From the IMG/VR virus record IMGVR_UViG_3300042540_001015: a stretch of 64,000 nt of DNA; one strand, 5' to 3'. This DNA is from an uncultured virus (IMG/VR IMGVR_UViG_3300042540_001015) (Duplodnaviria; Heunggongvirae; Uroviricota; Caudoviricetes). Each line of letters begins with the position of its first letter. The first letter of the stretch is position 1. The position numbers were made by a program, and so were the translations under genes. The notes beneath the pieces are model-generated. The model made no database searches, was not told where the DNA came from, and saw nothing but the letters and a program-made list of their open reading frames with translations. This document shows, piece by piece, positions 14,301 to 55,159 of the stretch.

Positions 14301-14789
14301 AACAACCCCGACGCCCTAGAGTTGAAGGGTCAAGCAAAGGCGATTTGGGATTCGGCCGGTGACCAGAACGCCACCGAGAATCCTTGGATTCAGGCCGAGG
14401 CCGAGAAGCGAGGCCTGAGCGTGACATACGTCTTCGTTCACGCCGATCCGAAGGTGCAGTGGGCCGACCCGAATCGCGGAGTCGTGAAGCGAGCAAGCGA
14501 CCCCAAGGACGGGAGAATGGTCGACGCGAAGGTCTTTGCCGACAGTTACGCGATCGGAGCAAAGAACCACCACGCGTTTCACCAAGCGAACAAAGACAAC
14601 TCCAACGCGAGGTTCGTGTTCCTCGACAACACCGGGAAGCCCAAGTCGATCCCTGGGGTTCCGAAGGAAGCACTCGATCTCAATCCGAGCGAACTCGCTT
14701 CGTTCGCCGAGAAGGAGGTTGAGAAGGCCCAGGCCCCGGAGCGGGTGAAGAAGGGTGCCCTTGCAGGGAGGCGAATCTGGAAGAAATGA
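11301..14789 (+). CDS. HK97-family portal protein with long C-terminal extension (HiPIP-like Cys domain, unknown domain, Zeta-toxin-like P-loop domain)
   Basis: N-terminal ~410 aa is portal (CCRIISETVSSLP, GNSY, EICRVFRLP, SINECR); extension has CHNC..C..C..W, two FCPTG tags and VGGCGAGKG. Confidence 0.9.
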   Translation: MSEERVLSDFVWTPERGENDPEVRSISWNNLLLSDEVYSGKFLTAAEIRINPDTALQSTTFLACCRIISETVSSLPIHVYRRLKNGHEEIASEIPLYHVLTFAPNSWQTKFEFFEQMVMALTCWGNSYTEVNSGKYGAVTELNNLHPSRMRVERLENGRLKYSYNDPQTGRLLQYTQDQIMHVRWTPEPDGVKGMVPVEVSRDAIALSRACEIYASKFWANMGRPGIVLQTDGALSAETAERLRDNWERIHRGVQNAYKTAVLTNGLKVESFGATNNDSQFLEVRRFQIEEICRVFRLPLHLVQGQGGGSLEIQGQEFINYTLMPWLTRIEQSISRSLIYDDAVYYAKFDTRGLLRGDSNSRAAFYSTMLNLGIFSINECRKAEGLGPLGPEADKHLVAMNLQPLEEAVKPKPDPSMMPGFGSGAPPQAPGGPPSLSEVKTGKPPIASPKGEDSAKRSLNPQDAELEEAHVEIAEEEGKWSKESAHYIEKNPFAARGIKCHNCTHYVEEGGCKIVSGLIGGEAICKLWVIPQEKITQEPESRAFCPTGPGGGVKNDCGSKDDGGPAAESGGKKTNKGNFPIANSLPKEVPAGHESLSEYVAFKPVPEGSGNSAFAVPPSDEDLAQALIGSNKSKGTKIGKAKELPEGTTVALRIDIPAFNHSTDRMGKSVYAITVHEDKGGKSKDFGSPIGYEPMARLSGPVRFDSKETEAVRVATGETTKTPLATVKGKYTQDRTIPADIDTWTPVGFDPKKAAYFYDKKTGDEILSGTDAVSVGNTVFTRNPQRGPRNAKTHYRSLEEMMAVDSWGLESRGFCPTGEGGGIDNSCGDDEGGGDSPAAPKGDGDCPKPCGEVDVHADKNDDGVTDTARVGVPAFDVPPPPGIPRMPNLDEKSRAAEEAFVKHFENDPEGVSSQFRDLVMKQGDPPTFGTDDAKCLTDVWSESDPEKRAENRATLNTALHQCANAVAKRAFVQHLDTLEKGDSIMVTVGGCGAGKGFALKNNPDALELKGQAKAIWDSAGDQNATENPWIQAEAEKRGLSVTYVFVHADPKVQWADPNRGVVKRASDPKDGRMVDAKVFADSYAIGAKNHHAFHQANKDNSNARFVFLDNTGKPKSIPGVPKEALDLNPSELASFAEKEVEKAQAPERVKKGALAGRRIWKK

Positions 14790-17700
14790 GTGCAGCGGAA
14801 AAAGCAACGCAACTGATCGAAGAGATCAAGGCTGCGGTCGGCATCTCGGAGTCCGACGATCTTGCCAAGTGGTGGGACGAAGACGCCGACCGTCTGAACA
14901 AGATGGCCGAAGAGGCCAAGAAGATCGCGGTGAAGGTCGAGAGCCGCGCCTTCTGCCCCACTGGCGAGGGCAACGGAATCGACAACTCATGCGGCTCCGG
15001 CGACAGGGGGCCGAAGATGGCCCCGGACAAAGACTCGGGCGGAGGGAGGGGCGGCGACGGCGACAACTTTGACGCCGTAGCCAACGAAATCTTGCGGTCC
15101 ATCGAGGCGACCGGCGGATACTCAGTCCATCCGATCACGGCCGAAAGCCCAACGACCGGATACATGGTCTCCACTGTCTCCCAGGCTGAGGAAAAGATTG
15201 CCGGTCTGGAGAACGTCACCGGAGACAGGATTCGCGAATACTTCGACAAGCACAAGGACTATCTTTCCGAGAACCCGCAGTTACACTTAGGGGGCTGGTT
15301 CAACCTCGAAGACGGGCTCGTCTATCTTGACCTGTCCGAGAGGTTTGAGGACGTCGACGACGCGATCGACAAGGCTGTCGAGAAGAACCAACTCGCAATC
15401 TGGGACCTGAACACCAAGTCAGAAATTCGCAAAGAGGATTACGATGGCAGAAGGACAAGAAAAAAAGAACCTCGTTCGGTTCGACTTCCCGCCCGGAGCG
15501 GGCCCGGACGAGATCGCGGCGGCGATCCGAAAGGCCGGATACAGGCTCCTGGCGGAGAAGGCGGCGAGGGAGGGGAAGCCCGCGCCTTCTGCGCCACCGG
15601 AGAAGGCGGCGGAGTAGACAACTCGTGCAGCGCGGGCGAATCATCGTCCGGCTCTGAGTGGGTTGCCTCCTCGACCGCCACGGCCACCGAGGAGCAAGAG
15701 CCCCAGTACACGGAGGCCGCCACCCCTCCATCGCGATCGGGCTGGAAGCGTTCCGAGGGGATGACGACCTGGAGTCGCGAGGAACTTCAGTCCTCGAAGA
15801 GCCCGTCGGAGACTGCCAAGAGTCTCGGCAGCCTCACGATCGTCGGAGGCAAGTGGGCGAGCGAGGCTCTCTCGAATGTTGGCGTCTCTCTCGACGACGT
15901 CATCGAGGCGTGCAGTTTCCCGGACGAGTCATCGAACGTCGTGATCGTGCCGGGCGAGCCCGCCCAGGCCTTCGACGTAATGTCTGGAAAAGATAACAAG
16001 GTCGGCTTCCTCGACGAGATCACGGTGACGACCGTGTCGACTCTCGAAGGATCAGACTCGCAGAACCACGCGATGACCTCGCTGCGGCGGCACGAGGACG
16101 GCACGCTCGAAATGAAACTCATCGGGCTCCTCGTTGCCGATGACGTGAAGCAGAACAATCGGATCGCTGCCGCCAGGAGAATTCTCGACCAAGTCCCGAG
16201 AATGATCGCCAACGCCGAGAGGCTGGGCGTCGACAAGGTTTCTCTCCGGGCGGCCGGTGACTCGGAGAACGAGAAGTATCAGGGCTACAAGATTTGGCCT
16301 CGCATCGGGTTTGACGGGGCGATCCCCAGGAAGTTGGTGACGAGCAAGTACACGCTGATGAAGGGCGTGTTCAACTCTTACGGCGACCGCATCCCTGACT
16401 CGATCCTCTCCCCTCGCGCCAAGCAGGAGAAGGCCAGCGGCAAGTTGACGGTCCAGGCTCTCTACGAGACGAAAGAGGGCCAGCGGTGGTGGGAGAGAAA
16501 CGGCGGCGATATGCCCATGTCTCTCGACATCAAGGACAAAGAGAGTCCTGGCATGAAGGCCTTCGAGAAGTCGCGGGCCAGGATCGGCAACCGGAGCCTG
16601 TCGGAGTTCCTCCTCTCCGAAAGTCGCAGCCTGAATCTTTTCTGGCCTGCGTGGCTGGAGAGGCGTGCGTACTGCCCAACCGGCGAAGGGAATGGAATAG
16701 ACAACTCATGCAGTAGCAGCGAAGGCGGCGCAGCGTCGTCCGCAATCGCCAGTGCTGTTCAGTCCCCCGAGAAGTCCTCGTCGCCAGCGGGGCCGCTCAA
16801 GTGGACATCCGGCGACCCGACAGGCGACATCACTTCTCGCGTGATGGCGGCCCCGCCGACCGTGAGGAGTGCTGACGGGAGGACGATCGAATCTACCTCT
16901 ATCCCGGACGCTCATATCTATCCGTTCGCCGGGCGTCAGTGGGTCTCGACGATCGACGCTGGCGCGTACCTGTCATCGATGCAAGACCAAGTTCGCGGCG
17001 GCGTAATTAACACCGCGACGGGCCGGGGGGAACTGTCACGCGAGAGCCTCGACTACATCACGACGGCAATCGCTGACCAGGGAATCACTGCGGCCAATCG
17101 CGGAATCGTTCCGCTCTTCTACTCGCCCGAAGAACTTGACCGGCAGTTGCAGGAGTTCTCGTCGCTCATTCCGCAGGTTCGCGGCGGACGAATGAAAGAC
17201 GGAACGCTCATCGAACAGGAGGACGCGGAGCACCTGTTCAGGGTTGTGCAGGCCCTCACGAGCCCCAACGCAACACCGTTTGCGAATATGCAGCGGACGG
17301 ACTCGCTCTTGCGAAAGTTCTTTGAGGGAGACGGAAGGATCACGACAGGAGATTCCCTCGGCGTCACCGGCCCAGGCATTCGCAAGTCGCTTCAGCGATT
17401 CCAGGCGATCGTCGACACGCTCGGAAGGCGAACTGGCGGGAGAGTCGACACGGCGGCCGGGCTGGCTGCGGCTCGTCAAATGCTCCAGCACCAGATGCTC
17501 CCGGCGAAAGAAATTGACAAATTCTTTGCCGACTTCAAGTCCGATAAGGACTCGAAGGACGCGTGGAAGCCCGGGAATTATCTCGTGGGTGAGGTCGTCC
17601 CGGTGTTCTCTACGTTTGGCCCCAAGGTCGGGCCGTTCTACGAGAACAACCAGGGCAACCTCGACCCGCTAACGGCTGATGTGTGGTTTACGAGAACCTG

Positions 17701-20440
17701 GGGTCGCGTCACTGGTGAACTCGTTGTGCCCGGCAAGTCGAGCAAGGCCGTCGAGCACGCCGAGCGACTCATCGATGCCTTCAAGAAAGCGAGAGACGAG
17801 CACTATCACGGGATCGCTCCCGAAGAGTTGCACGACTCGATTCGCAGGACGACTCAGAACGGCGTCGTCGATGACGTGCTTCGCGCTTGGTCTGAAGACC
17901 GCCTCGCGCACTACGCGGCTGGCGACTACAAGGAGAAGACTGGCGTCGGCGGCAAACTGAACTCGATCGCTAAGAACATCGTCAACAACGACACCTCGCT
18001 GATGGGAGACCCAGGCGCGGGCTCCCGCCGAAGCAACATGATCAAGGTGATGCGAGAGGCGTCGGCCAGGACCGGGCTGCCCGTTGCATATTTGCAGGAC
18101 GTCCTGTGGCAGGACGAGCAGGACGCCTACGCCTCCCTCGGCGCGAAGACGGCGACAGGCTTTGGGCAGTTGTCTCTGTACTCCGACCAGATCAGAAGGA
18201 TCGCCCAGGATCAAAAAAACAATCGCCGTCCGATGGCATCGAAGGATCGCTCCTCGCGACGGGCCTACAAGGAGGCCCAAGAGGACTCGTATCGCGACTA
18301 CGAACGCGGCGGCCGAGAGCAGATGCTCTGGGACGTTGCCCTCGCGAAGGTCAGCGACCAAGAATTCGCTAATGCCGTCATCGCCTTGGCCGAAGGAGGC
18401 AAAGAATCTCGCGGCTTCTGCGCCACAGGCGAAGGCGGAGGCATTGACAACTCGTGCGGCAGCGACGGCAAGGCCGCCGACGGCGACGAAAAGCAGTCAG
18501 GCAGCGAGTGGGCCGCCTCATCGGCGGGCGAGCCGACGTCCTCCACCGTCAAAATTGGAGACAAGCAGGAAGAAATCGACTCTCGCCTGGGCAAGATGGG
18601 CGTCAACATGGGCGAGGTCATGGCGATGGCGGGCGCAGGAGCCGACGGCGTCTACACATTCATCCGTCGCGACCAGGAAAAGCCCAACGAGAACGGGATT
18701 CACATCGAAACCACTCGCGATTTGGCCGGTGTGAGGGACGGAATGTTCACCACGACGGTGATTCGGAACGCCGGAACGGAGTCCGATCCCGAAATTGTCA
18801 TCGATCACAAGTTGATGGACGTCTCTCCGGCCGTCGCGTCCGACCCAGAGAAGCGGCACGAAGCGGCGAGGGTGTTTTTTCGCACGATGACCGACAATGT
18901 CGAGGCCGCACTCAAGTCTGGAGCGTCGAAAATTGTCCTGAACGCCGCCGGGAACGCTCGCGGCGAGGGCTCGAAGCGTCGAGAGATCGACGGAAACTCG
19001 TTCCGAGGCTACACGATCTGGCCGCGAATGGGTTTTGACGCTCCGATTCCGTTCAATCTCAAAAATAAGTTGCCGGAAGGCCTCGATCACTGCCGCACGT
19101 TGCTCGATTTGCACGCAACGCCCGCCGGAACACGCTGGTGGAGGGACAACGGCACCGACATCGACGTCCAACTCGACCTGAGTCGAGCCGATAGCCCCCA
19201 AATGCAGGTCTTCGGGCGTTTCGCGAGGCACTTCGAGCGAGACAGGCGAGAACTTGCCTACGGAACCGGCGATGGATGGCTCTCTCCGGCCGATCAGGCG
19301 AAACTCGACGAGTTGTGGGAAGGGATTTGGGACGAAGGGCTCCTCGACGACTACTCTGGCGAGGAAGAATCGCGAGCATTTTGTCCGACCGGCGATGGCG
19401 GCGGCATCGACAACTCGTGCAGCGCGAGCGATTCGTCGTCCGGCTCAGAATGGGCGGCCGCTTCGACGTCTCCGCCGAAGGAAGGCACCGCAGACTGGGG
19501 CCAGACGAGCGGAACTGAAATCTGGACCCCTGCGAAGCCTCTGTTCAAGGGCTCTGATCGGGTTGCGAGCATCAGGATCAATCGCGCCGCAGAGGTTCGC
19601 GAGATCGCAGAGGAGTTTGGGCTCGGCATCTCCGAGGTGACTGACGCCTCCGGCCCCGTAAGCGAGTCAACCGAGCGTGCTCACATCACTCTCCCGAGAG
19701 TCGAGGTTGGGCCGACCGGGAACGGCATACAGATTTCCTGGACTTGTCGCGGCGCAACGACCGGCGATGGTTACGCTCCGCACGAGAAGCCGTTCGCCGA
19801 GCCGAAAGATACGGTCGTGAACGCGGTCAGCGCGTATCGCGTGATCGAGAGAAGCCCGACCAGCGGTCTCACGCTGACTCTCGGGTCGTTCGACATCCAT
19901 CCCGACTTCCAGGGCAAGGGCATTGCCCTGGAGATGACCGGACGCGTCGTGTCTGCCCCGGTCGACGCGATCATAATGACAGCCGCGAGGCAGGATGACC
20001 CCAATCCACGGATGCGGATGACCGGATACGCGGAGTGGGCCAAGCACGGGTACAACGCCCACATCAACAGCGTGAAGGCAGTCCTTCAGGCCAAGGGCGT
20101 CGACCTGCCTGACGAGTTCGGCCACTGCCGCTCCCTCCTCGACCTCTACGCGACCCCCGGCGGGCCGGAGTTCTGGAGAGAGCACGGCGACACGATCACG
20201 CTGCGGTTCGACAAGCGTCCACGCAGCCAGAGTTACAACGCGTTGTTTGCAACACAGGACCGCGTTCGCAGGAAGAATCGTATGGAAGAGCCCTGGACGA
20301 GGCCCGCGACTGGCTCGGACTGCGACTACGATCCCGAAATCGACGCCGCGTGGGCGGAGATTCAAAGCAACGGAGGCCTCGACGGCCTGCCCCCAGAGGA
20401 GCCCGAAGATGGCGACCCCCGAGAAGTACAGCCACATTAA
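14786..20440 (+). CDS. 1884-aa multi-module head cargo polyprotein (5 tagged modules: unknown, GNAT-like x3, glycosylase-like)
   Basis: five [FY]C[PA]TG..GxDNSC tags; three paralogous GY..W.[RK].G[FY] domains; FGPKVGPFY...TADVWF domain. Confidence 0.75.
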   Translation: MSAAEKATQLIEEIKAAVGISESDDLAKWWDEDADRLNKMAEEAKKIAVKVESRAFCPTGEGNGIDNSCGSGDRGPKMAPDKDSGGGRGGDGDNFDAVANEILRSIEATGGYSVHPITAESPTTGYMVSTVSQAEEKIAGLENVTGDRIREYFDKHKDYLSENPQLHLGGWFNLEDGLVYLDLSERFEDVDDAIDKAVEKNQLAIWDLNTKSEIRKEDYDGRRTRKKEPRSVRLPARSGPGRDRGGDPKGRIQAPGGEGGEGGEARAFCATGEGGGVDNSCSAGESSSGSEWVASSTATATEEQEPQYTEAATPPSRSGWKRSEGMTTWSREELQSSKSPSETAKSLGSLTIVGGKWASEALSNVGVSLDDVIEACSFPDESSNVVIVPGEPAQAFDVMSGKDNKVGFLDEITVTTVSTLEGSDSQNHAMTSLRRHEDGTLEMKLIGLLVADDVKQNNRIAAARRILDQVPRMIANAERLGVDKVSLRAAGDSENEKYQGYKIWPRIGFDGAIPRKLVTSKYTLMKGVFNSYGDRIPDSILSPRAKQEKASGKLTVQALYETKEGQRWWERNGGDMPMSLDIKDKESPGMKAFEKSRARIGNRSLSEFLLSESRSLNLFWPAWLERRAYCPTGEGNGIDNSCSSSEGGAASSAIASAVQSPEKSSSPAGPLKWTSGDPTGDITSRVMAAPPTVRSADGRTIESTSIPDAHIYPFAGRQWVSTIDAGAYLSSMQDQVRGGVINTATGRGELSRESLDYITTAIADQGITAANRGIVPLFYSPEELDRQLQEFSSLIPQVRGGRMKDGTLIEQEDAEHLFRVVQALTSPNATPFANMQRTDSLLRKFFEGDGRITTGDSLGVTGPGIRKSLQRFQAIVDTLGRRTGGRVDTAAGLAAARQMLQHQMLPAKEIDKFFADFKSDKDSKDAWKPGNYLVGEVVPVFSTFGPKVGPFYENNQGNLDPLTADVWFTRTWGRVTGELVVPGKSSKAVEHAERLIDAFKKARDEHYHGIAPEELHDSIRRTTQNGVVDDVLRAWSEDRLAHYAAGDYKEKTGVGGKLNSIAKNIVNNDTSLMGDPGAGSRRSNMIKVMREASARTGLPVAYLQDVLWQDEQDAYASLGAKTATGFGQLSLYSDQIRRIAQDQKNNRRPMASKDRSSRRAYKEAQEDSYRDYERGGREQMLWDVALAKVSDQEFANAVIALAEGGKESRGFCATGEGGGIDNSCGSDGKAADGDEKQSGSEWAASSAGEPTSSTVKIGDKQEEIDSRLGKMGVNMGEVMAMAGAGADGVYTFIRRDQEKPNENGIHIETTRDLAGVRDGMFTTTVIRNAGTESDPEIVIDHKLMDVSPAVASDPEKRHEAARVFFRTMTDNVEAALKSGASKIVLNAAGNARGEGSKRREIDGNSFRGYTIWPRMGFDAPIPFNLKNKLPEGLDHCRTLLDLHATPAGTRWWRDNGTDIDVQLDLSRADSPQMQVFGRFARHFERDRRELAYGTGDGWLSPADQAKLDELWEGIWDEGLLDDYSGEEESRAFCPTGDGGGIDNSCSASDSSSGSEWAAASTSPPKEGTADWGQTSGTEIWTPAKPLFKGSDRVASIRINRAAEVREIAEEFGLGISEVTDASGPVSESTERAHITLPRVEVGPTGNGIQISWTCRGATTGDGYAPHEKPFAEPKDTVVNAVSAYRVIERSPTSGLTLTLGSFDIHPDFQGKGIALEMTGRVVSAPVDAIIMTAARQDDPNPRMRMTGYAEWAKHGYNAHINSVKAVLQAKGVDLPDEFGHCRSLLDLYATPGGPEFWREHGDTITLRFDKRPRSQSYNALFATQDRVRRKNRMEEPWTRPATGSDCDYDPEIDAAWAEIQSNGGLDGLPPEEPEDGDPREVQPH

Positions 20441-22721
20441 GTTCGTCCCTCCGTCCGGCGTCCGCCGCGAGGCAGAGTACGGACTCAAACTCCGTCGCGA
20501 GCACGGCCGAGGCGGCACCGCCGTCGGCATCGCGCGTGCGAGAGACCTGTCGAACGGCACCGAGTTGTCGCCGTCGACCGTGCGTCGCATGAAGGCGTAC
20601 TTCGATCGCCACACCGTCGACCAGAAGGGCGAAGGATTCAACCGAGGCGATAAGGGCTGGCCCTCGAACGGCTACATCGCCGCGAAGTTGTGGGGCGGAT
20701 TCCAGAGCGGCTACTCGTGGGCAAAGAAGGTCGTCGAGCAGATGAACGCGGCCGACGAGAAGTCTCGTTCTTATAGTCCGGAAACGGAAACCCGTAGTCT
20801 CGAAGTCAAGGAGACTGGGATGCAAAACGTCGAGCGACGGTATTTGGCAGCGTCTGGTTCTGAGAATTCCACCGAGGGCGCACTCGGCGTCGAGCACCGC
20901 GCCGACCCGCAGACGGGCGAGAAGCGGACATACCTTATCGGGTATGCGGCCAAATTTAATACTGACAGTTTGCTGTTGGGGGATTTCGTGGAGAGGATCG
21001 CCCCGTCGGCATTCGAGATCGTCGAGAATGGCGAGGACCTCGAAGGGAAGCCCCTGGAGACTCGTGGCCTCTTCAACCACGATCCGAATCACCTCATCGG
21101 TCGCTTCCCCAACACGATGAAGTTGACCGTCGACAAGATCGGTCTCAAGTACGAGATCATGCTCCCCGAGAGCCGCAAAGATTTGGCCGAGAGCGTGGCT
21201 CGCGGTGACTTGAAGGGCAGTTCATTTTCGTTCGTCGTGGCCGAAGGCGGCGAGAAGTGGACCCGCGAAGGAGGCAAGAGCCGCCGCCTCGTGACGAAGA
21301 TCAAGTCGCTCCTCGACTGCGGGCCCGTGACCTATCCGGCCTACAGGGATAGCAGCGTTGCCGTCGCGAAGCGAAGTTACGAGCAGTTCGCTGCCAAGCC
21401 TCAGGCCCCAAAGGTCGATCTCTCCGCAGAGATGCGGAAGTGCCAGGAGTTCATCGGCGAGCGTCGCGGCTTCTGTCCGACGGGCCCGGGGGGCGGGATC
21501 GACAATTCTTGCGGCGGGAAGTCGGGGGCAAGCAAAAAGCCAGCCGACGACGTCGGCGCGGACATTCACGCTGATTCCTTGCCAGCCATCGCAGGCGCAG
21601 CCGCAGGAGCGGCGGTCGGCGCGATCGCCGGAGCGCCAGGGGCTGTCGTCGGGGGCTTCGCGGGCCTCGTCGCCGGAGCCGTCAGCGTTGACCGCTACGT
21701 CGCGAAGGTCGAGAAAGCGCTCAAGAGTGTCGGCTCTTCCATTAAGAAAATCGACACCTTTGCAAGAACGATCGGCAAGGCGATGAGCATCACCTCCACG
21801 AAAACAGGGGGAGTCCAGGCCGAAGGCGGCGGCGTGAAGATGACCATCGAAAAGTATGCGAAGGACGAGGTCGGCAAGTCTCTCGCAGGAAAGGTTGCCT
21901 TCATTGAGAACGCCACCAACGCGATTGGCGGCGAGGGAACCGAGAGCGTCGGCCGTCTGGCGGGCACGCTCGTCAAGGCCGGTCGCGACCTCGGCGTCGA
22001 TCACGTCATGGTTGCCCTCGACACGATGGATAGGCTTCACGAGGAGGCGTTCGTTGAAGCCGGTTTCACACATAGCATCACAGGCGACGACGCGACTCGC
22101 ATCACGATGATCAAGTCGTACAAGCGTTCGTCGAAGCGGTACGACGAACTTATGGCTTTCTACTCCGAGCGTCGCGGCTTCTGTCCGACAGGCCCAGGCG
22201 GCGGCGTCGACAACACCTGCGGCGGCGGCAAGGAGGGCGGATTTGGGTCTGGCAACGACGTCGGCAAGAATAAGCCCGAGCCGGATAAGCCAAGCGGCGG
22301 CACCGTGAAGTCAGAGAAGCCTCCGGGCGAGCCGAAGTACATGGAGTGGAAGAAGGGGAAGGATCACAAGAGCAAGTCCAAGACCGACAAGGCCCAGGGC
22401 TTCCTCGACAAGGCCCGCGAAGAGCAACTCTCAAAGGGCGGCAAGGACAAGGGCAAGGCCGACGAAGGCGGCGGCGTGCAGACCTGGAGCAAGGGCGATC
22501 ACTTCCCTTGGACGACGAAGCAGGTCGGCGACAAGGACGGCTATCTTCAAGGCGTTCACCCGGACGGCTCGAAGACGGAGCAGTATCCGTTCAAGGACGG
22601 CAACACGTCCGAGGCCGAGAAGATGCTCGGGGAGGAACTGAAGCGTCGGCCGGGGAAGCGTGCATACGACCCCCGCCAAGTCGTCGAAGACACGCTGAGG
22701 TTCCTGAAGGACCGTCGCTGA
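20409..22721 (+). CDS. HK97-type prohead protease with N-terminal extra domain and two C-terminal tagged modules
   Basis: GYAAKFN, FVERIAPSAF, LFNHD, SSFSF, GPVTYPAY motifs; ATG at 20409. Confidence 0.9.
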   Translation: MATPEKYSHIKFVPPSGVRREAEYGLKLRREHGRGGTAVGIARARDLSNGTELSPSTVRRMKAYFDRHTVDQKGEGFNRGDKGWPSNGYIAAKLWGGFQSGYSWAKKVVEQMNAADEKSRSYSPETETRSLEVKETGMQNVERRYLAASGSENSTEGALGVEHRADPQTGEKRTYLIGYAAKFNTDSLLLGDFVERIAPSAFEIVENGEDLEGKPLETRGLFNHDPNHLIGRFPNTMKLTVDKIGLKYEIMLPESRKDLAESVARGDLKGSSFSFVVAEGGEKWTREGGKSRRLVTKIKSLLDCGPVTYPAYRDSSVAVAKRSYEQFAAKPQAPKVDLSAEMRKCQEFIGERRGFCPTGPGGGIDNSCGGKSGASKKPADDVGADIHADSLPAIAGAAAGAAVGAIAGAPGAVVGGFAGLVAGAVSVDRYVAKVEKALKSVGSSIKKIDTFARTIGKAMSITSTKTGGVQAEGGGVKMTIEKYAKDEVGKSLAGKVAFIENATNAIGGEGTESVGRLAGTLVKAGRDLGVDHVMVALDTMDRLHEEAFVEAGFTHSITGDDATRITMIKSYKRSSKRYDELMAFYSERRGFCPTGPGGGVDNTCGGGKEGGFGSGNDVGKNKPEPDKPSGGTVKSEKPPGEPKYMEWKKGKDHKSKSKTDKAQGFLDKAREEQLSKGGKDKGKADEGGGVQTWSKGDHFPWTTKQVGDKDGYLQGVHPDGSKTEQYPFKDGNTSEAEKMLGEELKRRPGKRAYDPRQVVEDTLRFLKDRR

Positions 22722-25132
22722 TGAGCCTAAACGCTCGCATCGCGAGTCTCGTCGCGTTCTCGCAGTCGAGGGCGATGGGCACCGCCACGAACGCAGGCGG
22801 GGGTGCCCTCACGGGCACGAGCGACTGCGGGCGAGATGAGGATGGGAAGTTTGGTGCTGGCAACACCTGCGGCATCGGCATCAACATCAACGACAAGCAT
22901 CAGGACTTTACCGGATTAATCCTGGCCGGGCAGAAGACTTCCGAGACGAGAATAACTCACTCACTCAAGCCATACGTCGGCAAGACTGTCGGGATCGTCC
23001 GCACCGGAAAGGGCAAGGCGACGCTTGTCGGCACGATGAAGATCGGCGAGCCAAAGTTCTACAAGACGAGCAAGGACTTCGACGCCGACTTTGATAAGCA
23101 TCAAGTCGGTAAAGATTCGCCCCACTACATCGGCCCTGAGGGAAAGTACGGATACCCTCTCTCAGAGGTGAAGCCCGTCAAGCCGGTCGTGCTCAAGTCG
23201 AAGGGCATCATTGGGCGAGTCATTCACAAGTCGAAGCGAGACATGACGATCGTGTACGACCTCGCTGGCGAGGAGTCTCCGGAAGAGCCGAGAGCCTTTC
23301 TTCTCTCCGGGGGAGACGCCCGCTACGCCAGCCTCCTGGCATTCGCCGAGGCTCGCGACTGCGGGCGGGACCCCGACGGGAAGTTCTCGTCTGGCAACAC
23401 CTGCGCGGGCGGAGCCATTGCCGAGGCTGCGAAGGGTGCCGCCGCCGGGGCGGTGAAGGGTGCGATCACCGGCCTCCTCGCGGGCGGGCCCGCGACCGTG
23501 AAGCCCGGGGCCGCGATCGGTGCCGCCACCGGCGCAGTGAAGGGCATCTACGACAACCAGATGCGGCCAACGAGAGTGAAGAGGACGATTGAGAAGTTGG
23601 GCATGACGAGTGATCAGGTCGGCTCTCTCGTCGAGCGGCTCGGCGGCACGCCTAACTCCTCCGCAGACACGAAGGGCAACTCGCTGCGGATCACGATCCG
23701 AGACAAGGAAGGCAAGAAGTCTTTTCACGTCGAGATCGACAAGAAGAACATTACTGTCTACCCGCGAAGAGCATCCGGGGAACTGAGCAGCAAAGAAATA
23801 GACCGCGTCAAAAAGATCGCCGACGAGTCGACCCCGAAGTCGGTTGCCGTCGTCGTGAAGAAGAGTTCGTCGGCCTACGTCGCCAAACTCGTGAAGAGCG
23901 GCTTCACGTTGGCCGCAGGTCATGCCGCCGACATTCTCCTGGCGACCTACGCGACGCCTCTCGTCCACTCGGCCGTGGTCGATGCTGCCCAGTCCGTGAA
24001 GAAGCGAGTCTCTTCTCGCGGCTTCTGCCCCACGGGTGAGGGCGGGGGCATCGACAACTCGTGCAGCAGCCAGGACGGCGATTTTGCAGCCGCATCGGCC
24101 GGTGCCACGAAGACGTACTCAAAGGCCGCCGAGATCGAGGGGCCGAAGACGTTTGACTCGCAAGAGATTGCAAAGGAGATTGCCTGCGATCGGTTTGACG
24201 AAACAGGCGAACTTCAGCGATGGGCGAAGGGCTCTCGCGCAAGGCAGGCAGACGTCTCCGCCCATGTGGCTTCCGTTCGACTGGCTTCTCAGGCCGTTCC
24301 GGAGATTGGCGAGGCGAAAATCAACTTCATATCCCGGGCAGACGCCACAAGGGCGGGGATGCTTCGGGGGGTTTCGCCAAAGGAGGCCGAAGGCATCTTG
24401 GGCCTCACGAATACGGGCACGGGCGAGATCAGGATGATCATTGACAACCCGCCGACCCCGAAACTTATGCGGAAGGCTTTCGAGGATCAGGTTCTCTCGA
24501 CCGACCATCCGTCTCACGGAATTGTCCATGAGTTCGCTCATCACCTTCAGGTGGACGGCTACAGGCAATTCCTGATTGAAGACATCAAGTCGGTGATTGC
24601 TGACGGCAATCACAGCCAGAGCCAAAAGACTCACATGGAGAACTTGGTCAATCACCTTGAGGGCGGAGGAGAGATTCCGCCAGAAGCAGTCAAGGACGGG
24701 GAACGAAAACTGATGGAGAAGTTCGCCGAGTTTGCTCTCGCCGACAGGGACGTCCGGCCGTGGGCGATCGAGTTGCACAGGCAGATGGCCGACAAAGGCA
24801 ATCAAGATTCCAAGAAGCGGCTCGCCGACCTGGAGCGAGGCCACGATCTCGATTTGAATGAACTCAAGGCATACGAAATTGCCTCGAATTTCTGGTCTCA
24901 GGGCCTGAAGCCGCAGCCCGGAGTGGTGATGCCGCCGCCGCTCCCGGACTCGTTCGTGGCCCGGGTTCGCGGTGTTTCCAAATACGCGACCACCCAGCCG
25001 ATAGAATTAACGGCAGAGTATTGGACAGCCGTGGCCCTCGGATACCGCAAGCGAGACCCGTACCTGGATGAGATGTGCCTCGCATCGCACATGCCCGTTC
25101 CCAAAGAGCGAAAGGGGAAGGCGAAGAAATGA
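22721..25132 (+). CDS. head cargo polyprotein: ASCH-like domain, Gly/Ala-rich module, HEXXH metallopeptidase
   Basis: ATG overlaps the upstream TGA; LILAGQKTSETR (ASCH-like); IVHEFAHH...SKYATTQPIELTAE. Confidence 0.75.
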   Translation: MSLNARIASLVAFSQSRAMGTATNAGGGALTGTSDCGRDEDGKFGAGNTCGIGININDKHQDFTGLILAGQKTSETRITHSLKPYVGKTVGIVRTGKGKATLVGTMKIGEPKFYKTSKDFDADFDKHQVGKDSPHYIGPEGKYGYPLSEVKPVKPVVLKSKGIIGRVIHKSKRDMTIVYDLAGEESPEEPRAFLLSGGDARYASLLAFAEARDCGRDPDGKFSSGNTCAGGAIAEAAKGAAAGAVKGAITGLLAGGPATVKPGAAIGAATGAVKGIYDNQMRPTRVKRTIEKLGMTSDQVGSLVERLGGTPNSSADTKGNSLRITIRDKEGKKSFHVEIDKKNITVYPRRASGELSSKEIDRVKKIADESTPKSVAVVVKKSSSAYVAKLVKSGFTLAAGHAADILLATYATPLVHSAVVDAAQSVKKRVSSRGFCPTGEGGGIDNSCSSQDGDFAAASAGATKTYSKAAEIEGPKTFDSQEIAKEIACDRFDETGELQRWAKGSRARQADVSAHVASVRLASQAVPEIGEAKINFISRADATRAGMLRGVSPKEAEGILGLTNTGTGEIRMIIDNPPTPKLMRKAFEDQVLSTDHPSHGIVHEFAHHLQVDGYRQFLIEDIKSVIADGNHSQSQKTHMENLVNHLEGGGEIPPEAVKDGERKLMEKFAEFALADRDVRPWAIELHRQMADKGNQDSKKRLADLERGHDLDLNELKAYEIASNFWSQGLKPQPGVVMPPPLPDSFVARVRGVSKYATTQPIELTAEYWTAVALGYRKRDPYLDEMCLASHMPVPKERKGKAKK

Positions 25133-48772: not shown

Positions 48773-48973
48773 ATGCAGATAGCAACCACCGTGGAGTTGG
48801 CTGAAGAACTCGGAACGAGCCCGTCGAGCATCTCCCGCGCAGCGAAGCGGGCGAACGTCGGCGTGCGTCGAGAAGACGGCCGCCTCGTCGGCGTGCCTCG
48901 GCGAGACGTCGCGAAAATCAAGAAACTGCTCAGGTTCAAGGCCGGAAACCCAAACTTCGGAAAGAAGAAATGA
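48773..48973 (+). CDS. small HTH protein
   Basis: TVELAEELGTSPSSISR; promoter-like TTGAAA-16-TACAAT at 48736-48763. Confidence 0.7.
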   Translation: MQIATTVELAEELGTSPSSISRAAKRANVGVRREDGRLVGVPRRDVAKIKKLLRFKAGNPNFGKKK

Positions 48974-49851
48974 AGGTCTTCTACAGCGACGACTACGTCC
49001 GGGCTTCCCACGCTTTCGACACCACGAAGAAGGCGGGCTGGATCGCGGACTCTCTCGAACTTCGTCCGATCACGGGCGTCGAAGTCGTGGCCCCGGAGCC
49101 AGCGACTCGCGAGAGCATCGAGGAAGTTCACTGCCCAGAGTACGTCCGTGCCGTCGAGGCAGGCTCGGGGGTGAGCACGAGCGGCATCGAGTGGTGCCCC
49201 GAGGTGTTCCCTGCCGTCTTGGCGAGCACTGGCGGAGTCGTTGCCGCCGTCCGGGCTGCGATCGACGAAGGCGTGGCCGGGAGCCTGTCGAGCGGAATGC
49301 ACCACGCTCGATACGACCACGGGCTCGGCTTCTGCACTTTCAACGGACTCGTCGTCGCGGCGAACGAGGCGGAGCGTCTGGGCAAGAAGAAGGTGCTGAT
49401 CCTCGACCTCGACGCCCACGGCGGCGGAGGCACGGCCTCTCTTGTTTCTGGCAAAGTACGGATAAGTCACCTCGACCTTGCTGTTGATCCGTTTGACTTG
49501 CACGCAGACTCGGTCGATCTCTCGAAGTCGAGCCCGCTCAACTATCTGTTGGTCCTCGACTCGATCCTCGACGAGACCGACCCAGACTTCGTGATCTACA
49601 ACGCCGGGATGGACGTTTTCGAGTCGGACTGCGGGCCGCGAGGCTTCGACTCGAATGTCATCGCCGCCCGCGAGGCTACCGTGTTTAGTTGGGCCGCCGA
49701 CCGCGACGTCCCGATCGCGTTCGCCCTGGCTGGCGGGTACACGTCCAAGGAACGTCCACGAGAACTGCTCGTTGCTCACCACCGCTGCACAATTCGTGCA
49801 GCGGCGTCCATTGTAAGGAAAGGAGTCCCCTCTCATGCCGACTTGCTCTGA
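48970..49851 (+). CDS. histone deacetylase/AcuC-family Zn-dependent deacetylase
   Basis: GMHHA, GFCTFN, LDLDAH, YNAGMD, LAGGY motifs. Confidence 0.9.
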   Translation: MKVFYSDDYVRASHAFDTTKKAGWIADSLELRPITGVEVVAPEPATRESIEEVHCPEYVRAVEAGSGVSTSGIEWCPEVFPAVLASTGGVVAAVRAAIDEGVAGSLSSGMHHARYDHGLGFCTFNGLVVAANEAERLGKKKVLILDLDAHGGGGTASLVSGKVRISHLDLAVDPFDLHADSVDLSKSSPLNYLLVLDSILDETDPDFVIYNAGMDVFESDCGPRGFDSNVIAAREATVFSWAADRDVPIAFALAGGYTSKERPRELLVAHHRCTIRAAASIVRKGVPSHADLL

Positions 49852-51070: not shown

Positions 51071-51413
51071 GCCTCTCCTCTACGTCGCCGGGCCGTACTC
51101 GAAGCCCGACCCGGTCTCAAACACGCACGCAGTCTGCCGCGTGGCGATCGAAATCTACGAGCGGACGGAGTGGTGCCCTGTCGTGCCGCACCTGTCGCTC
51201 CTCTGGCACGCCGTCACGCCGCGCGAGTACAGGCACTGGCTGGACTACGACCTGCACTTGATGCGGAGATGCGACGCCGTCGTCCGTCTACCGGGCGCGA
51301 GCCCAGGCGCAGACGAGGAAATCGAGGAGGCGAACCGGCTCGGCATCCGTGTCCTGTGCATCGACGAACTGCCGCCCGAGGCCCTGACGCACTGGATCAA
51401 CAAAATCGCTTGA
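51063..51413 (+). CDS. DUF4406/nucleoside 2-deoxyribosyltransferase-like protein
   Basis: YVAGPY...CDAV.RLPG.S.GA..E...A. Confidence 0.8.
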   Translation: MSRPLLYVAGPYSKPDPVSNTHAVCRVAIEIYERTEWCPVVPHLSLLWHAVTPREYRHWLDYDLHLMRRCDAVVRLPGASPGADEEIEEANRLGIRVLCIDELPPEALTHWINKIA

Positions 51414-51437
51414 CCGAAGTCCGGATACGAGTACACT
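51410..51437 (+). promoter_or_regulatory. sigma70-like promoter for the Y-RNA/Ro60 unit
   Basis: TTGACC-16-TACACT. Confidence 0.55.
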
Positions 51438-51444
51438 CGCGGCC

Positions 51445-51514
51445 GCCGGTAGTGAAGAGAAACGGGTACTTCACTAAAGCATGATGATCACCCCGTTCTC
51501 GCGAGTTCTCCGGC
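51445..51514 (+). ncRNA. candidate Y-RNA-like structured RNA 1
   Basis: GCCGG/CCGGC closing stem, inner GAGAAACGGG/CCCGTTCTC stem, conserved GTAGTGAAG..GGGTACTTC..GTTCT. Confidence 0.65.
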
Positions 51515-51526
51515 ACTAATACAACA

Positions 51527-51590
51527 CGGCGTAGTGAAGGTCGCGGGTACTTCTAAGGAAAGTTTGACCGCGTACCGTTTGTTCTCGCCG
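51527..51590 (+). ncRNA. candidate Y-RNA-like structured RNA 2
   Basis: CGGCG/CGCCG closing stem, inner GGTCGCGG/CCGCGTACC stem, same conserved blocks. Confidence 0.65.
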
Positions 51591-51610
51591 GTTTGATTCA
51601 AGGAGGAGCC

Positions 51611-52909
51611 ATGCGAATGAACTCTCGCCCGCCGTCCGCGACGACGCACGAGGGCGGCACTGCAAAACGGATCACGCCGTCGCAGGAACTCCGCCGCAGC
51701 GTCCTCTCCTGCCTCCTCTGGGAGAAGGAGTTCTACGAGGACGGCGAATCGATCGCCGATCGGATCGACTCGCTCTGCGAGAAGGTCGAGCCTCGCGAGG
51801 TCGCTCTCCTGGCCGTCCAGGCTCGAAACGAGTTTCACCTCCGCCACGTCTCTTTGCTCCTCGCGGCCTGCCTTGCCAAGCGGACCGGCGGCCCGATCGT
51901 GGCCGCGACGATCCACGGCGTCGTTCAACGCGCCGACGAGTTGGCCGAGTTCCTCGCGATCTATTGGAGGAAAGGCCGCTGCTCGCTCTCGAATCAGGTG
52001 AAGAAGGCCCTCGCGGCCGCGTTCCAGAAGTTCAACGCGTACCAACTCGGCAAATACAACCGCGACGGTGCGATAAAACTCCGCGACGTCCTGTTCCTCG
52101 TCCACGCGAAGCCGAAGGACGACGAACAGGCGGCCACCTGGAAGCGGCTCGTCGACGGCACCCTGGAGTCTCCGGACACCTGGGAGGTCGCTCTGTCGTC
52201 CGGTGCCGACAAGAAGGAGACGTTCGAGAGGCTCCTGAGCGAGCGGAAACTCGGATACCTCGCCCTGCTTCGCAACCTGCGGAACATGGCCGAGGCTGGA
52301 TGCTACGAGCCGCTCGTGAAGACCGCGATCCTGTCGCGGATCGGCGCGGATCGGATTCTGCCGTTCCGGTACGTCGCGGCGGCTCGCGCCTGCCCGCAGA
52401 TGGAGCCGACGCTCGACATCGCTCTCCTGGCGTCGATCTCCGAGTTGCCCACGCTCGAAGGGAAGACGATCGTCCTCGTCGACGTCTCGGGATCGATGGA
52501 CGCCCCGCTCTCCGAGCGAAGCGACATGACTCGAATGGACGCGGCGGCTGCCCTGGCTGCGATCATCCCCAGCCAAGACTTGCGAGTCTTCACGTTCAGC
52601 GACCGGACCGTCGAGGTTGCTCCGCGTCGAGGCATGGCTGGCGTCGACGCCGTGATCAACTCACAGCATCACAGCGGCACCTACCTCGGGCAGGCCGTGG
52701 TCGACGTGAGCCGCCACCCGCACGATCGCCTGATCGTGATCACAGACGAGCAGACGTTCGATCGAGTTCCGGAACCTTCGTGCGAGCACGCGTACATGAT
52801 CAATGTCGCCTCGAATCAGCGAGGCGTTGGCTACGGTGCCTGGACGCACCTGGACGGATTCAGCGAGAACGTCATCCGATACATGGTGGAACATGAACAA
52901 ATTTCTTGA
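51611..52909 (+). CDS. Ro60/TROVE-domain RNA-binding protein with C-terminal vWA domain
   Basis: THEGG, LRRSV.SCLLWE, RADE, YQL.KY, PDTWE, ALLRNLRN, LVDVSGSM, ITDEQ; AGGAGG RBS. Confidence 0.92.
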   Translation: MRMNSRPPSATTHEGGTAKRITPSQELRRSVLSCLLWEKEFYEDGESIADRIDSLCEKVEPREVALLAVQARNEFHLRHVSLLLAACLAKRTGGPIVAATIHGVVQRADELAEFLAIYWRKGRCSLSNQVKKALAAAFQKFNAYQLGKYNRDGAIKLRDVLFLVHAKPKDDEQAATWKRLVDGTLESPDTWEVALSSGADKKETFERLLSERKLGYLALLRNLRNMAEAGCYEPLVKTAILSRIGADRILPFRYVAAARACPQMEPTLDIALLASISELPTLEGKTIVLVDVSGSMDAPLSERSDMTRMDAAAALAAIIPSQDLRVFTFSDRTVEVAPRRGMAGVDAVINSQHHSGTYLGQAVVDVSRHPHDRLIVITDEQTFDRVPEPSCEHAYMINVASNQRGVGYGAWTHLDGFSENVIRYMVEHEQIS

Positions 52910-53079: not shown

Positions 53080-53108
53080 TTGACAAGCGGCCGCGATAGG
53101 GATATCTT
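53080..53108 (+). promoter_or_regulatory. sigma70-like promoter
   Basis: TTGACA-17-TATCTT. Confidence 0.5.
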
Positions 53109-53137
53109 TGGGCATCACCTTCAAGGAGATGCCAGAG

Positions 53138-53503
53138 ATGACCAAGCACGACGAGATTCAGACGATCAAGAAGTTCGTGGCGGCCCTGCCTGAGAACACC
53201 TATCTTCGTTCGGCCCTGGAGCCGTTCGTCCTGGAGTTCGAGCAGGGTATCTACTCCGACATCGTCCCCTCGCTCCGCGAGTCGTGGAACGAGCGGATCG
53301 AGGCCCAGCGAGAGGCCGCCGAGGCGAAGCGGGCAGTCGAAGCCCTTCGCCGCGAGCAGTCGAAACTTGAGGAAGCCGTCGTCGGCCAACTCCGTCGCAT
53401 CGAGAACGCTGCCGGTCTGTTTCGCGACATCGAACAGGTCGTCGGCTCTGCGAAGTTCGCCGCCGATCGCGTCGCGTCATCCGCCCGATCCCTTCTTTCT
53501 TGA
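53138..53503 (+). CDS. hypothetical coiled-coil protein
   Basis: AAGGAG upstream; start could be 53129 or 53138. Confidence 0.6.
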   Translation: MTKHDEIQTIKKFVAALPENTYLRSALEPFVLEFEQGIYSDIVPSLRESWNERIEAQREAAEAKRAVEALRREQSKLEEAVVGQLRRIENAAGLFRDIEQVVGSAKFAADRVASSARSLLS

Positions 53504-53517
53504 GGAGTTGTACGGAC

Positions 53518-53910
53518 ATGAGCACCCCGCTGAAGGACCCGTTTTTCATTTCTTCCTGGCTGACTCCTGCCGTCCGGGTTGCCGACGCCGTCATCTCGAT
53601 TGAGTACGGCGACGCGACCCCGGACGGCCGCGTCCGCTACCGCTACGTCATCGAGTTCCCCTGCCACTCATGCCACCGTGGGGACGACCTGAAGAGCGGC
53701 GTCGGCGGAGGGGCGCTGAAGCAGGGGATGGAGTCCCTGCTCTCGTTTCTCTCGGCGTGCGGAGAGTCAAACAGGCCGGGGCGCAGGGGCGAGAACGCCG
53801 ACCTGTTCCCGCCCATCGTGGCCGAGTGGTGCTACGAGAATCAGGACGAAATCGAGTTGGTTCGCACTCAGATCGAGGAAACGGAGGACTGCTGCGTTGA
53901 GTCTCGTTAG
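53518..53910 (+). CDS. hypothetical protein
   Basis: GAGGAG upstream; DDLKSG...SLLSFL.AC.E...ENADLFP. Confidence 0.6.
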   Translation: MSTPLKDPFFISSWLTPAVRVADAVISIEYGDATPDGRVRYRYVIEFPCHSCHRGDDLKSGVGGGALKQGMESLLSFLSACGESNRPGRRGENADLFPPIVAEWCYENQDEIELVRTQIEETEDCCVESR

Positions 53911-54088
53911 GGTAACGCCCGACTGGTACGAGTCTCGCGACGGTCGCTACTGCGTCCTTCGTGTCGGCTCGAAGTGGGCACTCGCGGCGTTCAACGGACA
54001 GCGGTGGGTATCGGAGTCATTCCGCAGCAAAAGGGAGGCTGCGGCGGAGGTTGCACGGAGGCTGACGCAGGAACGGACAAACGCGTAG
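53897..54088 (+). CDS. small hypothetical protein
   Basis: GGAGG RBS; YES.DGRY...F.SK.EA. Confidence 0.5.
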   Translation: MSLVRVTPDWYESRDGRYCVLRVGSKWALAAFNGQRWVSESFRSKREAAAEVARRLTQERTNA

Positions 54089-54094
54089 GAGGGA

Positions 54095-54582
54095 AGGCAT
54101 GGACACCGCCTTATTAGATTAACGCTCCACCGTGAGCGTCAGCGGCTGCGATTCACGGCCGCATCGGTCGCCCAGTCGAGAGGTGGCGAGTAACGCTCGA
54201 CGAAACCATTGGTGTATCTCCTGGCGCAGGGCGGCTTCGGCCGCCCTGCGTTTGGGGAGGCCACGACGAGACTTCGGTGGAAATCTTCGGCGCGACCCGC
54301 CGGAGTGTTCGGTAGGGCGAACTGGCTGAGAAATCAGTCCCCTCTAAAAGCAACAAAAAATCTTCGGCGTAATCCGTCGGAGTGTTCGGTAGGGCGAACC
54401 GGCAGAGCGATCTGCCCCCACTAAGATGCGGTATTAGCAACTGCCCGGCAGGGCCAGGTGAAGTCTCAAGAGCGCAGGGCGGCGCGAAGGACGCGATGGG
54501 CTGCTCTCTCAGCCCAAATCGTCCTAAAGAGGCCAGCGGCTGATATTCGCTGGCCTCTTCGGCCGCCCTGCGTTTTTCTTTC
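54095..54582 (+). ncRNA. large structured intergenic RNA candidate with a tandem 67-nt motif, ending in a stem plus U-tract
   Basis: many hairpins with UUCG/GNRA loops; covarying repeats at 54281-54347 and 54358-54424; duplicated GCGCAGGGCGGC/GCCGCCCTGCGT stem. Confidence 0.6.
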
Positions 54583-54634
54583 TTGCCAATGCACCGGCGT
54601 CGTGCTATACTGCATCACCACGAGGAGGGTCGCA

Positions 54635-55159
54635 ATGAAATTCAAGGTCTTGAAAGTCACCGAGGAGGGCCACTGCGAGAAGTGTGGTCGCCCTTGTCCG
54701 CGTCGCCGCGTGCTCGTGCAGCCGCTCGACGCCGATGGCAACCCGAATGCCGAGCCGCAGGCCTGGGGCGTCAACTGCGCCGCCGAGGCGAAGTACGGCA
54801 AGAAGACGGCGAAACTCCAACAGACGATCCTGTTCGAGGCCGAGAACGCCGAGCGGGAGCGAGTGCTGACGGAGAAGGGTTGGCTGGACCGCGTCGTGAA
54901 GGTCGGCGAGCCTGTTGTGTTGTGGGTGCCCGGCATGGGACGTTCGTTCCTCGTCGACCCGCCGACGACCATAGAGGAGGCAAAGAGCCTCGCGAACAGG
55001 AAGTACAACTCCTGCCGTGCGAGCCTCGTCGGCTCCTACTTCGCGCAGCGTGGCGAGGTGGAGGTCGTGCGGGTCGACGCTCTGAGGGTAGGTCAGGCGA
55101 AGTTCTTCGAGTCTCAGGGTTTCGTTCGAGTCTCAGAGCCAGTGGCGGAGGCGATATGA
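54635..55159 (+). CDS. hypothetical early protein with Zn-finger-like N-terminus
   Basis: CEKCGR...WGVNCA; GAGGAG RBS after the promoter. Confidence 0.7.
   Translation: MKFKVLKVTEEGHCEKCGRPCPRRRVLVQPLDADGNPNAEPQAWGVNCAAEAKYGKKTAKLQQTILFEAENAERERVLTEKGWLDRVVKVGEPVVLWVPGMGRSFLVDPPTTIEEAKSLANRKYNSCRASLVGSYFAQRGEVEVVRVDALRVGQAKFFESQGFVRVSEPVAEAI

Follow-up and report, generated by a model that had tools for sequence, protein, structure and literature searches.

What are the two similar three-hairpin elements that stand in tandem at the 3' end of an early operon in an uncultured tailed phage, and where do they come from? The window, by which we mean the whole 64,000-nt stretch of DNA that was analysed, carries terminase, portal, capsid and tape measure genes, and the sequences come from lake metagenomes; the sequencing runs listed as containing it include no RNA run, which does not bear on expression. 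A preliminary description, made from the letters alone, pointed out a tandem 67-nt motif at this locus and suggested a new ribozyme, an aptamer or a decoy RNA, possibly a mimic of the type III antitoxin ToxI.

The two-unit hairpin repeat is confirmed as real. Both copies, their coordinates and sequences and the three hairpins of each were borne out by a check of the sequence and by folding (Table 1). The units are 67 nt each, have a period of 77 nt and are identical at 56 of 67 positions (84%). In each of them, hairpin A is predicted to have 8 bp, hairpin B 5 bp and a GUAGGG loop, and hairpin C 6 bp and a GNRA loop, while single-stranded AAAU and loop B are invariant between the copies. Seven of the 11 differences fall on unpaired positions and four on paired columns, and despite these differences all 19 predicted pairs are retained in both units. 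When 11 changes are placed at random, 19/19 pairs are retained in ~0.8% of trials (simulated P ~0.008); with four changes falling on paired columns, this happens in ~2% of trials. The covariation claimed earlier for the hairpins holds for a single U-A to A-U double change, which lies in hairpin C, but the rest consists of only two single G-C/G-U changes; no pair is broken. Folded alone as A-B-C, the units reach -25.0 and -25.2 kcal/mol on the + strand and only -20.3 and -18.1 kcal/mol on the - strand, in agreement with the strand originally proposed. Since the folding z-scores of units 1 and 2 are -1.8 and -1.9, their stability is not unusual. A comparison of both units revealed no suitably common stop-free frame by which coding could explain their differences. 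Contigs from two other runs reproduce parts of the surrounding cassette letter for letter (X3, 53894-54301 and 54424-54720; X5, 54373-54599), which excludes an assembly artefact; among the listed pieces from these runs, none covers both units. As modest evidence from two sequences, the pattern of changes weakly supports selection on the structure of the units.

It was also proposed that the invariant GGG of loop B pairs with the CCC near the 3' end. Such a pairing can form, but a 3-bp match of loop B to a random 8-nt tail is expected 27% of the time, and the positions involved (loop B and tail) are identical in both units, with zero covariation. A better 5-bp register, UAGGG:CC(W)CUA, in which the variable W bulges out, has a random expectation of 1.4%, this register having been picked after the fact. 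A pseudoknot between loop B and the tail is possible, but no variation supports it. When the whole context is folded, hairpin B of unit 1 has a predicted probability of only ~0.45, its rival being a nested AGGG/CCCU helix, and the hairpin A arms are predicted to be exchangeable between the two copies with a probability of 0.34.

The units sit in a 330-bp hairpin cassette bounded by two copies of one terminator stem, T1 and T2. The direct repeats common to T1 and T2 that bound it are 12 nt (54224/54472) and 19 nt (54235/54557) long. The predicted probability of T2 formation is ~0.97. T2 is Y-shaped, and its bulged G precedes CGAAG, one letter from the Y-RNA motif. The arms of T1 and T2 could also pair across at equal energy: the alternative fold with T1 paired to T2, in which the units are not involved, is isoenergetic (-187.0 versus -187.6 kcal/mol). 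Along the locus, the order is a promoter, three small ORFs, element U (a candidate RNA that is considered below), T1, the two units, T2 and a new promoter at 54583. The 174-aa ORF behind the latter has its own, consensus-matched promoter and would therefore be transcribed separately; it has no Pfam, PHROG or PADLOC match and only unnamed viral look-alikes. Near-identical promoter-operator elements lead successive early cassettes (54583, 56064, 57220, 58112, 59119 and 60854).

Table 1. Features of the locus and its surroundings, in window positions
Feature	Position	Strand	Details
Y-like RNAs of the phage	~51445-51514 and ~51527-51590		in front of the Ro60 gene
Ro60/TROVE gene	51593..52909	+	1.4 kb upstream of the units
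Sigma70-like promoter	53080..53108	+	operon with the units in its 3' region; consensus match only
122-aa ORF of the operon	53135-53503	+	
130-aa ORF of the operon	53518-53910	+	
63-aa ORF of the operon	53897-54088	+	
Element U	54053..54201	+	candidate structured RNA, separate from the units; also in relatives without the cassette
T1	54224..54254	+	12-bp GC stem, UUCG loop, three U only; at the position of the relatives' terminator
Closing helix around both units	54268-54276 with 54459-54467	+	9 bp; prediction only, P ~0.9
Unit 1	54281..54347	+	AAAU, hairpin A 54285-54305, U, hairpin B 54307-54322, U, hairpin C 54324-54339 (GAAA loop), tail CCCUCUAA
REP-like half of unit 1	54311..54339	+	more diverged
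Linker	54348..54357	+	A-rich, 10 nt, separates unit 1 from unit 2
Unit 2	54358..54424	+	AAAU, hairpin A 54362-54382, U, hairpin B 54384-54399, C, hairpin C 54401-54416 (GCGA loop), tail CCCACUAA
REP-like half of unit 2	54388..54416	+	GGTAG, GGCGAAC leader, C, 6-bp hairpin
T2	54468..54584	+	second copy of the T1 stem, two hairpins inside its loop, then a long U tract; z -8.9
Next promoter	54583..54611	+	conserved phage promoter-operator type; consensus match only
174-aa ORF	54635-55159	+	behind the next promoter

The cassette is missing from four syntenic records of two lineages (L215, L216, L217/L102 and L218/L120); in L215, L216, L217 and L218, element U is followed directly by a single terminator and a promoter. 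The locus lies outside the coverage of the nearest viral record (G001) and of the 99% sister contig (L290), which, compared with the window, has extra cassettes of ~1.8 kb and ~1.2 kb. In runs X7 and X8 the contig match ends at 54234. Past this position the X8 sequence runs on for at least 255 nt and has a different hairpin, so other strains bear another module there. The units are part of an accessory, strain-variable cassette in the 3' region of the transcript.

An Rfam scan, suggested at the outset as a check, gave no match to a known family: no model reached its gathering score in the window, and at E<=10 the segment 50600-55000 gave two chance hits and no ribozyme model. This is so although the tandem includes every circular permutation of the unit. 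The early impression that the unit fits no hammerhead, HDV, pistol or twister core was upheld by Rfam and by descriptors for hammerhead, HDV-like and pistol-junction folds, and a tRNA/tmRNA search found none. Scans with full-unit patterns returned nothing beyond chance matches (4, 4 and 27 loci in IMG/VR viral records, 16 loci in JGI metagenomes and 34 in GTDB genomes), BLAST against phage and plasmid collections gave nothing below E 0.5, and a descriptor scan of 2.29 Mb detected no third copy of the unit. The covariance model, built from the two units only (self score 99 bits), is poor for remote homologues. Above 26 bits it had no match in the window, the fetched loci or whole viral records (0/49 and 0/27); other genomes gave none (0/5), and weak matches were seen in 16 of 151 Planctomycetia genomes (E<=0.05) and in 1 of 151 genomes of the family (E<=1e-4). 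In other words, the homologue collection envisaged in the preliminary description came to nothing: the viral, metagenome and genome scans contain no full-length homologue, an absence that, with searches weak for remote ones, is not proof of uniqueness. Apparent resemblances of the unit to TPP, GEMM and the tRNA D-arm were dropped, since the matching letters differ between the copies or there is no Rfam score. VIPR, TIGR and UG27 arrays, as far as the available portions of their descriptions go, do not fit either: the GGYNN period is absent, and the ORFs scanned include neither a reverse transcriptase nor a related protein. Toxin, reverse transcriptase and Y1 transposase genes were found neither among 16 + 21 + 11 + 24 selected ORFs of the window nor among 64 of the 131 sister-contig ORFs. 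We found no published description of the unit; preprint supplements (e.g. the motif catalogue, 10.64898/2026.10.21.760802) might contain the unit or element U.

Two weak covariance-model matches (25 bits) correspond to a host palindrome of the form GGCGARC-N-stem-4-nt loop. The invariant GGTAGGGCGAAC together with hairpin C resembles this planctomycete REP-type repeat, and the resemblance of the 3' half to a host repeat provides another reason for the invariance of that part. Among 81 genomes of the family of G052 (Limnoglobus), which we take to be Gemmataceae, 11 have 20-305 matches to the pattern with a 6-bp stem, against 0-13 for the reversed-pattern control; in the phylum of G561 it has at most four matches per genome (81 genomes). 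Individual counts are 94 in G657 and 56 in G462 (control 0), and a pattern close to the phage half has 167 matches in G597 (control 1). Genomes with the host repeat are G597, G657, G462, G576, G635 and G682. The copies are arranged as inverted pairs and as head-to-tail arrays, and in the latter GGTAG stands before the leader. At 3 of 28 Y1-transposase loci the host repeat is found on both sides of the gene, and L395, L396 and L397 are REPtron-like Y1 loci; the partial Y1 segments at repeat loci match REP-transposase and IS200 models below the cut-off. A repeat that flanks a Y1 transposase gene on both sides is the REPtron layout (PMC3733652, PMC3479197).

The half of unit 2 is identical at 26 of 29 nt to the head-to-tail array of G682, and leader plus hairpin agrees with the best host-locus copy at 21/24 and 19/24 nt for the two phage copies. 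The G682 array contains both C and T linkers, the letters in which units 2 and 1 differ between hairpins B and C, and the A-T/T-A flip of the fourth stem pair as well as the GCGA loop occur among the host variants, as between the phage copies. Scored with a matrix of 23 distinct host copies, the units come out as the two best sites of the window: unit 2 scores 24.9 bits, above all 4.02 million viral positions scored, and unit 1 scores 10.1 bits, which is reached by 8 viral positions. However, the likeness is inflated, and the shuffle P of 0.0005 for that half is circular, because patterns derived from the phage half served to retrieve the host loci; a selection-aware P is ~0.001-0.02 under an assumed 4000 trials. 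Hairpin A compared with the host arrays gives P 0.03-0.43, which does not support its REP origin, and the other cassette hairpins give P>=0.06. Among 53 hairpin contexts at host loci, the CCCNCTAA tail occurs in none and GTTC just upstream in three, although the two phage copies do not differ in them. REP likeness thus accounts for neither hairpin A nor the 5' arm of B nor the tail. The phage leader is predicted to be paired in hairpin B, the phage stem is two outer pairs shorter than the host stem, and a pattern of the phage form has at most two matches per genome in 401 Planctomycetia genomes. Both phage copies have an A-T closing pair that is missing from the host consensus; the flip would therefore have arisen after the remodelling or through recombination.

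Like REP/BIME elements, the phage half is a short GC-rich hairpin with a conserved unpaired leader, placed extragenically behind genes and in head-to-tail tandem, and, as in the E. coli REP system, GTAG lies on the 5' side of its leader and CT dinucleotides flank it, a likeness that may be chance. Nonetheless, the combination of a palindrome with an unpaired leader is found only in the 3' half of each unit. High copy number, a mark of REP/BIME families, is seen in the host family but not in the phage, which has two copies in the window, not dispersed, and none in the sister contig or relatives scanned. The REP/BIME tag of the Di Nocera families (GTAG or CGTC) lies directly at the foot of the stem, whereas the GTAG of the unit is 8 nt away, before GGCGAAC-Y; in host arrays this GTAG is the tail of the preceding copy. 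The unit further differs in its extra hairpin A, in a GTTC arm that pairs with the leader, in its CCCWCTAA tail, in the stem two pairs shorter and in its length (67 nt versus 20-40 bp). As no Y1 transposase was found among the phage ORFs scanned, such an enzyme would act in trans. By analogy, then, the unit seems to behave as a REP-type 3' element, but by copy number and tag position it is not a member of a REP family.

From the repeat alone, we infer that the phage may have a planctomycete host. The window integrase is common to many relatives, several of them on 90-98-kb contigs; as to prophage relatives in planctomycetes, the integrase was found in 0 of 351 and the capsid protein in 0 of 301 Planctomycetota genomes.

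Based on these observations, we tentatively prefer the possibility that the unit is a captured, remodelled and duplicated REP-like element kept as a 3'-end RNA shield. The data directly show the tandem units, the flanking stem repeats, relatives that lack the cassette and a 3' half resembling a high-copy host palindrome, together with the fold as a prediction. If this is the case, the source of the REP-type palindrome would be a planctomycete-like host or an element that phage and host have in common, and the capture would have come about either by recombination between the short repeats of the terminators or through a host REP transposase working on single-stranded DNA. The palindrome would have been remodelled by an added arm and tail and duplicated within the 330-bp cassette that entered at the terminator of the early operon. 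Read-through of a leaky T1 up to T2 would transcribe the units, and the stacked hairpins, possibly with the UAGGG:CC(W)CUA pseudoknot, might slow 3'-5' exonucleases or RNA polymerase, acting through shape and not catalysis. Such slowing would make the RNA upstream, with its three small ORFs and element U, more stable, much as REP/BIME elements do behind bacterial genes. REPs are reported to make mRNA more stable and sometimes to cause termination (PMC3479197). On the other hand, T2 is already a very stable 3' barrier, so further hairpins may add little. A REP origin, if true, would mean that a phage captures and reshapes a host repeat under selection for RNA structure. It would also suggest that Gemmataceae-like planctomycetes are infected by an abundant, large and uncultured phage family from lakes (90-98 kb), for which protein searches gave no host. 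A 3'-end shield or a leftover would be of modest value; a decoy or a ribozyme would be a new small RNA class, and a REP turned functional RNA would show a class of functional RNA in the course of its origin from a selfish repeat.

There is also a possibility that the units are simply a neutral leftover, that is, a decaying REP-derived mosaic that was inserted and duplicated, and whose pairs have been kept by inherited variants, gene conversion or chance. The cassette is absent from all relatives examined, the folding z-scores are modest, and the only double change is a flip already present among host variants. Yet this explanation appears improbable in the face of 19/19 pairs surviving 11 changes (P ~0.008) with no pair-breaking change, and of the A-T closing pair common to both copies and absent from the host consensus. 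The invariant AAAU, loop B and tail are not supplied in this form by a REP, and they are therefore the best reason to retain the readings in which the RNA itself acts. One of these is a trans-acting decoy, a unit folded with its pseudoknot that would come from the 3' end of the early transcript and titrate a host protein (a defence RNase, in the manner of pseudo-ToxI, or a binder of REP hairpins), with two copies raising the dose. We regard it as unlikely, though worth keeping in mind: the cassette is accessory and strain-variable and lies in the early cassette region, the single-stranded parts are invariant, the units are predicted to lie within a closing helix with a terminator downstream, and the tandem copies have an A-rich linker and each begin with AAAU. 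ToxN(Pa) cuts at AA/AU, and type III antitoxins such as ToxI and CptI, or pseudo-ToxI, share with the units tandem repeats, a possible pseudoknot, an A-rich AAAU linker and a downstream terminator (PMC5086642). However, no AAAU follows unit 2 (the next is at 54516), so a ToxN-type enzyme would not excise unit 2, and a matching array is absent from 151 + 151 planctomycete genomes. Type III antitoxin repeats are compact H-type pseudoknots excised at A-rich sites on either side. In contrast to the 34-36 nt given for ToxI-family repeats (PMC5086642), the period is 77 nt with three hairpins, the unit being about twice as long, and the copies are 84% identical. Those antitoxins are also followed by a toxin gene (PMC5086642), whereas no toxin gene lies past the terminator here. 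A type III antitoxin proper was rejected: a ToxN, CptN or TenpN gene was expected there, and the 174-aa ORF in that place matches no family. The decoy suggested at the outset thus survives in its general form, but its ToxI-type version, with no type III toxin in the proteins scanned, has gained no positive support.

Another such reading is a small ribozyme of a new kind that would cleave itself and resemble pistol in its P1 and pseudoknot; cleavage of the tandem would free a 77-nt RNA. The resemblance of hairpin B to the pistol P1-loop pseudoknot (PMC4604425, PMC6154101) lies in a short hairpin whose 6-nt loop can pair over 5-6 bp with a downstream strand, in the unit over 5 bp with one bulge and with zero covariation; both are found in phage intergenic sites, and the unpaired bases of the unit are invariant. 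Nevertheless, the unit lacks a P2 closed by the 3' strand, a P3 followed by a 2-nt G-U junction and the conserved G-C-G (G40, C41, G42) after the pseudoknot strand. A P2/P3 junction at this point is not common to both units, the letters after the tail being AAGC in one and GAUG in the other. There is no ribozyme model in Rfam at E<=10, no pistol score, and no hammerhead core or HDV-like topology by descriptor, while REP likeness accounts for much of the invariance. With the known cores absent and no positive support, the proposed ribozyme is distinctly improbable. The hammerhead core consists of CUGAnGA and GAAA, and the HDV fold is a nested double pseudoknot with a J4/2 C; both were discarded, as CUGAnGA occurs on neither strand, the descriptors have 0 hits in 54050-54600 and Rfam has none. 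The two lines of thought could be combined. A host REP palindrome might have been turned into a new phage RNA, with the added arm hiding the leader in hairpin B and the loop and tail forming a pistol-like pseudoknot, and serve as a trans decoy or a self-cleaver, which we consider rather unlikely. For an aptamer we see no positive support. Some aptamers have the HL-out pseudoknot layout that the units resemble, and the isoenergetic T1-T2 fold could be taken as a switch, the units being tandem riboswitch aptamers that govern T2 read-through. But T1 would fold first in transcription, the alternative fold bypasses the units and Rfam gives no match. Riboswitches stand 5' of the gene they control with an expression platform, and the unit is in a 3' position, before a constitutive terminator and a gene with its own promoter, so a riboswitch would have nothing to control; the place of an accessory cassette in the 3' region of the transcript also argues against it. 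This reading is extremely unlikely.

Finally, the units could be partners or clients of Ro60, either as a Y-like RNA or as its three-hairpin effector domain. They lie on the same strand as a Ro60 gene, at 1.4 kb, and no RNA-binding protein other than Ro60 was recognised in the ORFs scanned. YrlA RNAs occur within 4 kb of Ro60 genes (PMC4201824), a distance (~4 kb) within which the units fall, and Y RNAs and YrlA likewise have three consecutive hairpins (PMC4201824, PMC12135203). However, segment 54050-54590 has no GNCGAAN0-1G motif (PMC4201824) and no T-loop or Y-RNA module. Unlike Y RNAs and YrlA, the units have neither a Ro60-binding motif nor T and D arms and no YrlA score, and Ro60-bearing relatives occur without the cassette, so to speak of a Ro60 partner here is very unlikely to be right. 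The Y-like RNAs of the phage are elsewhere, upstream of the gene. Arrays of them at phage Ro60 genes have a common module, GURGYGAAG...CGGNUACUUC...GUUCUC, with variable inserts (window 51410-51595; L217 3536-4010). This module occurs twice before the Ro60 gene of the window and in 28 of 47 sources scanned. L217 has four Y-like RNAs, one of them with a YrlA tRNA-like domain (32 bits, below the gathering score), and the window two short ones without this domain.

As a new RNA at this locus, element U is better supported than the units, since it shows covariation at three pseudoknot-stem pairs. Copies are found in L217 (6545-6706), L216 (6524-6678) and L215 (6536-6675) and in contigs of X3 and X5, and the DNA of the element is conserved far beyond the flanking proteins, with no Rfam match. 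In the predicted layout a long hairpin spans the 63-aa ORF's stop codon, together with a short hairpin and an H-type pseudoknot, of which stem UCGCC/GGCGA is invariant and stem GUCGAG/CUCGAC has double changes at 3 of 6 pairs (four sequences). Element U also holds a 7-codon ORF behind a Shine-Dalgarno sequence, which is deleted in L215. Elsewhere in the phage, a gene of the histone-deacetylase family is present (window 48970-49851), and the sister contig carries ferritin-like and CAP-domain genes (L319 14448-14912; L320 5223-5648). A coding repeat, also of 67 nt, encodes a cysteine-bearing peptide and is present in at least 10 copies over the portal and adjoining giant head-region ORFs (window 12921-24080).
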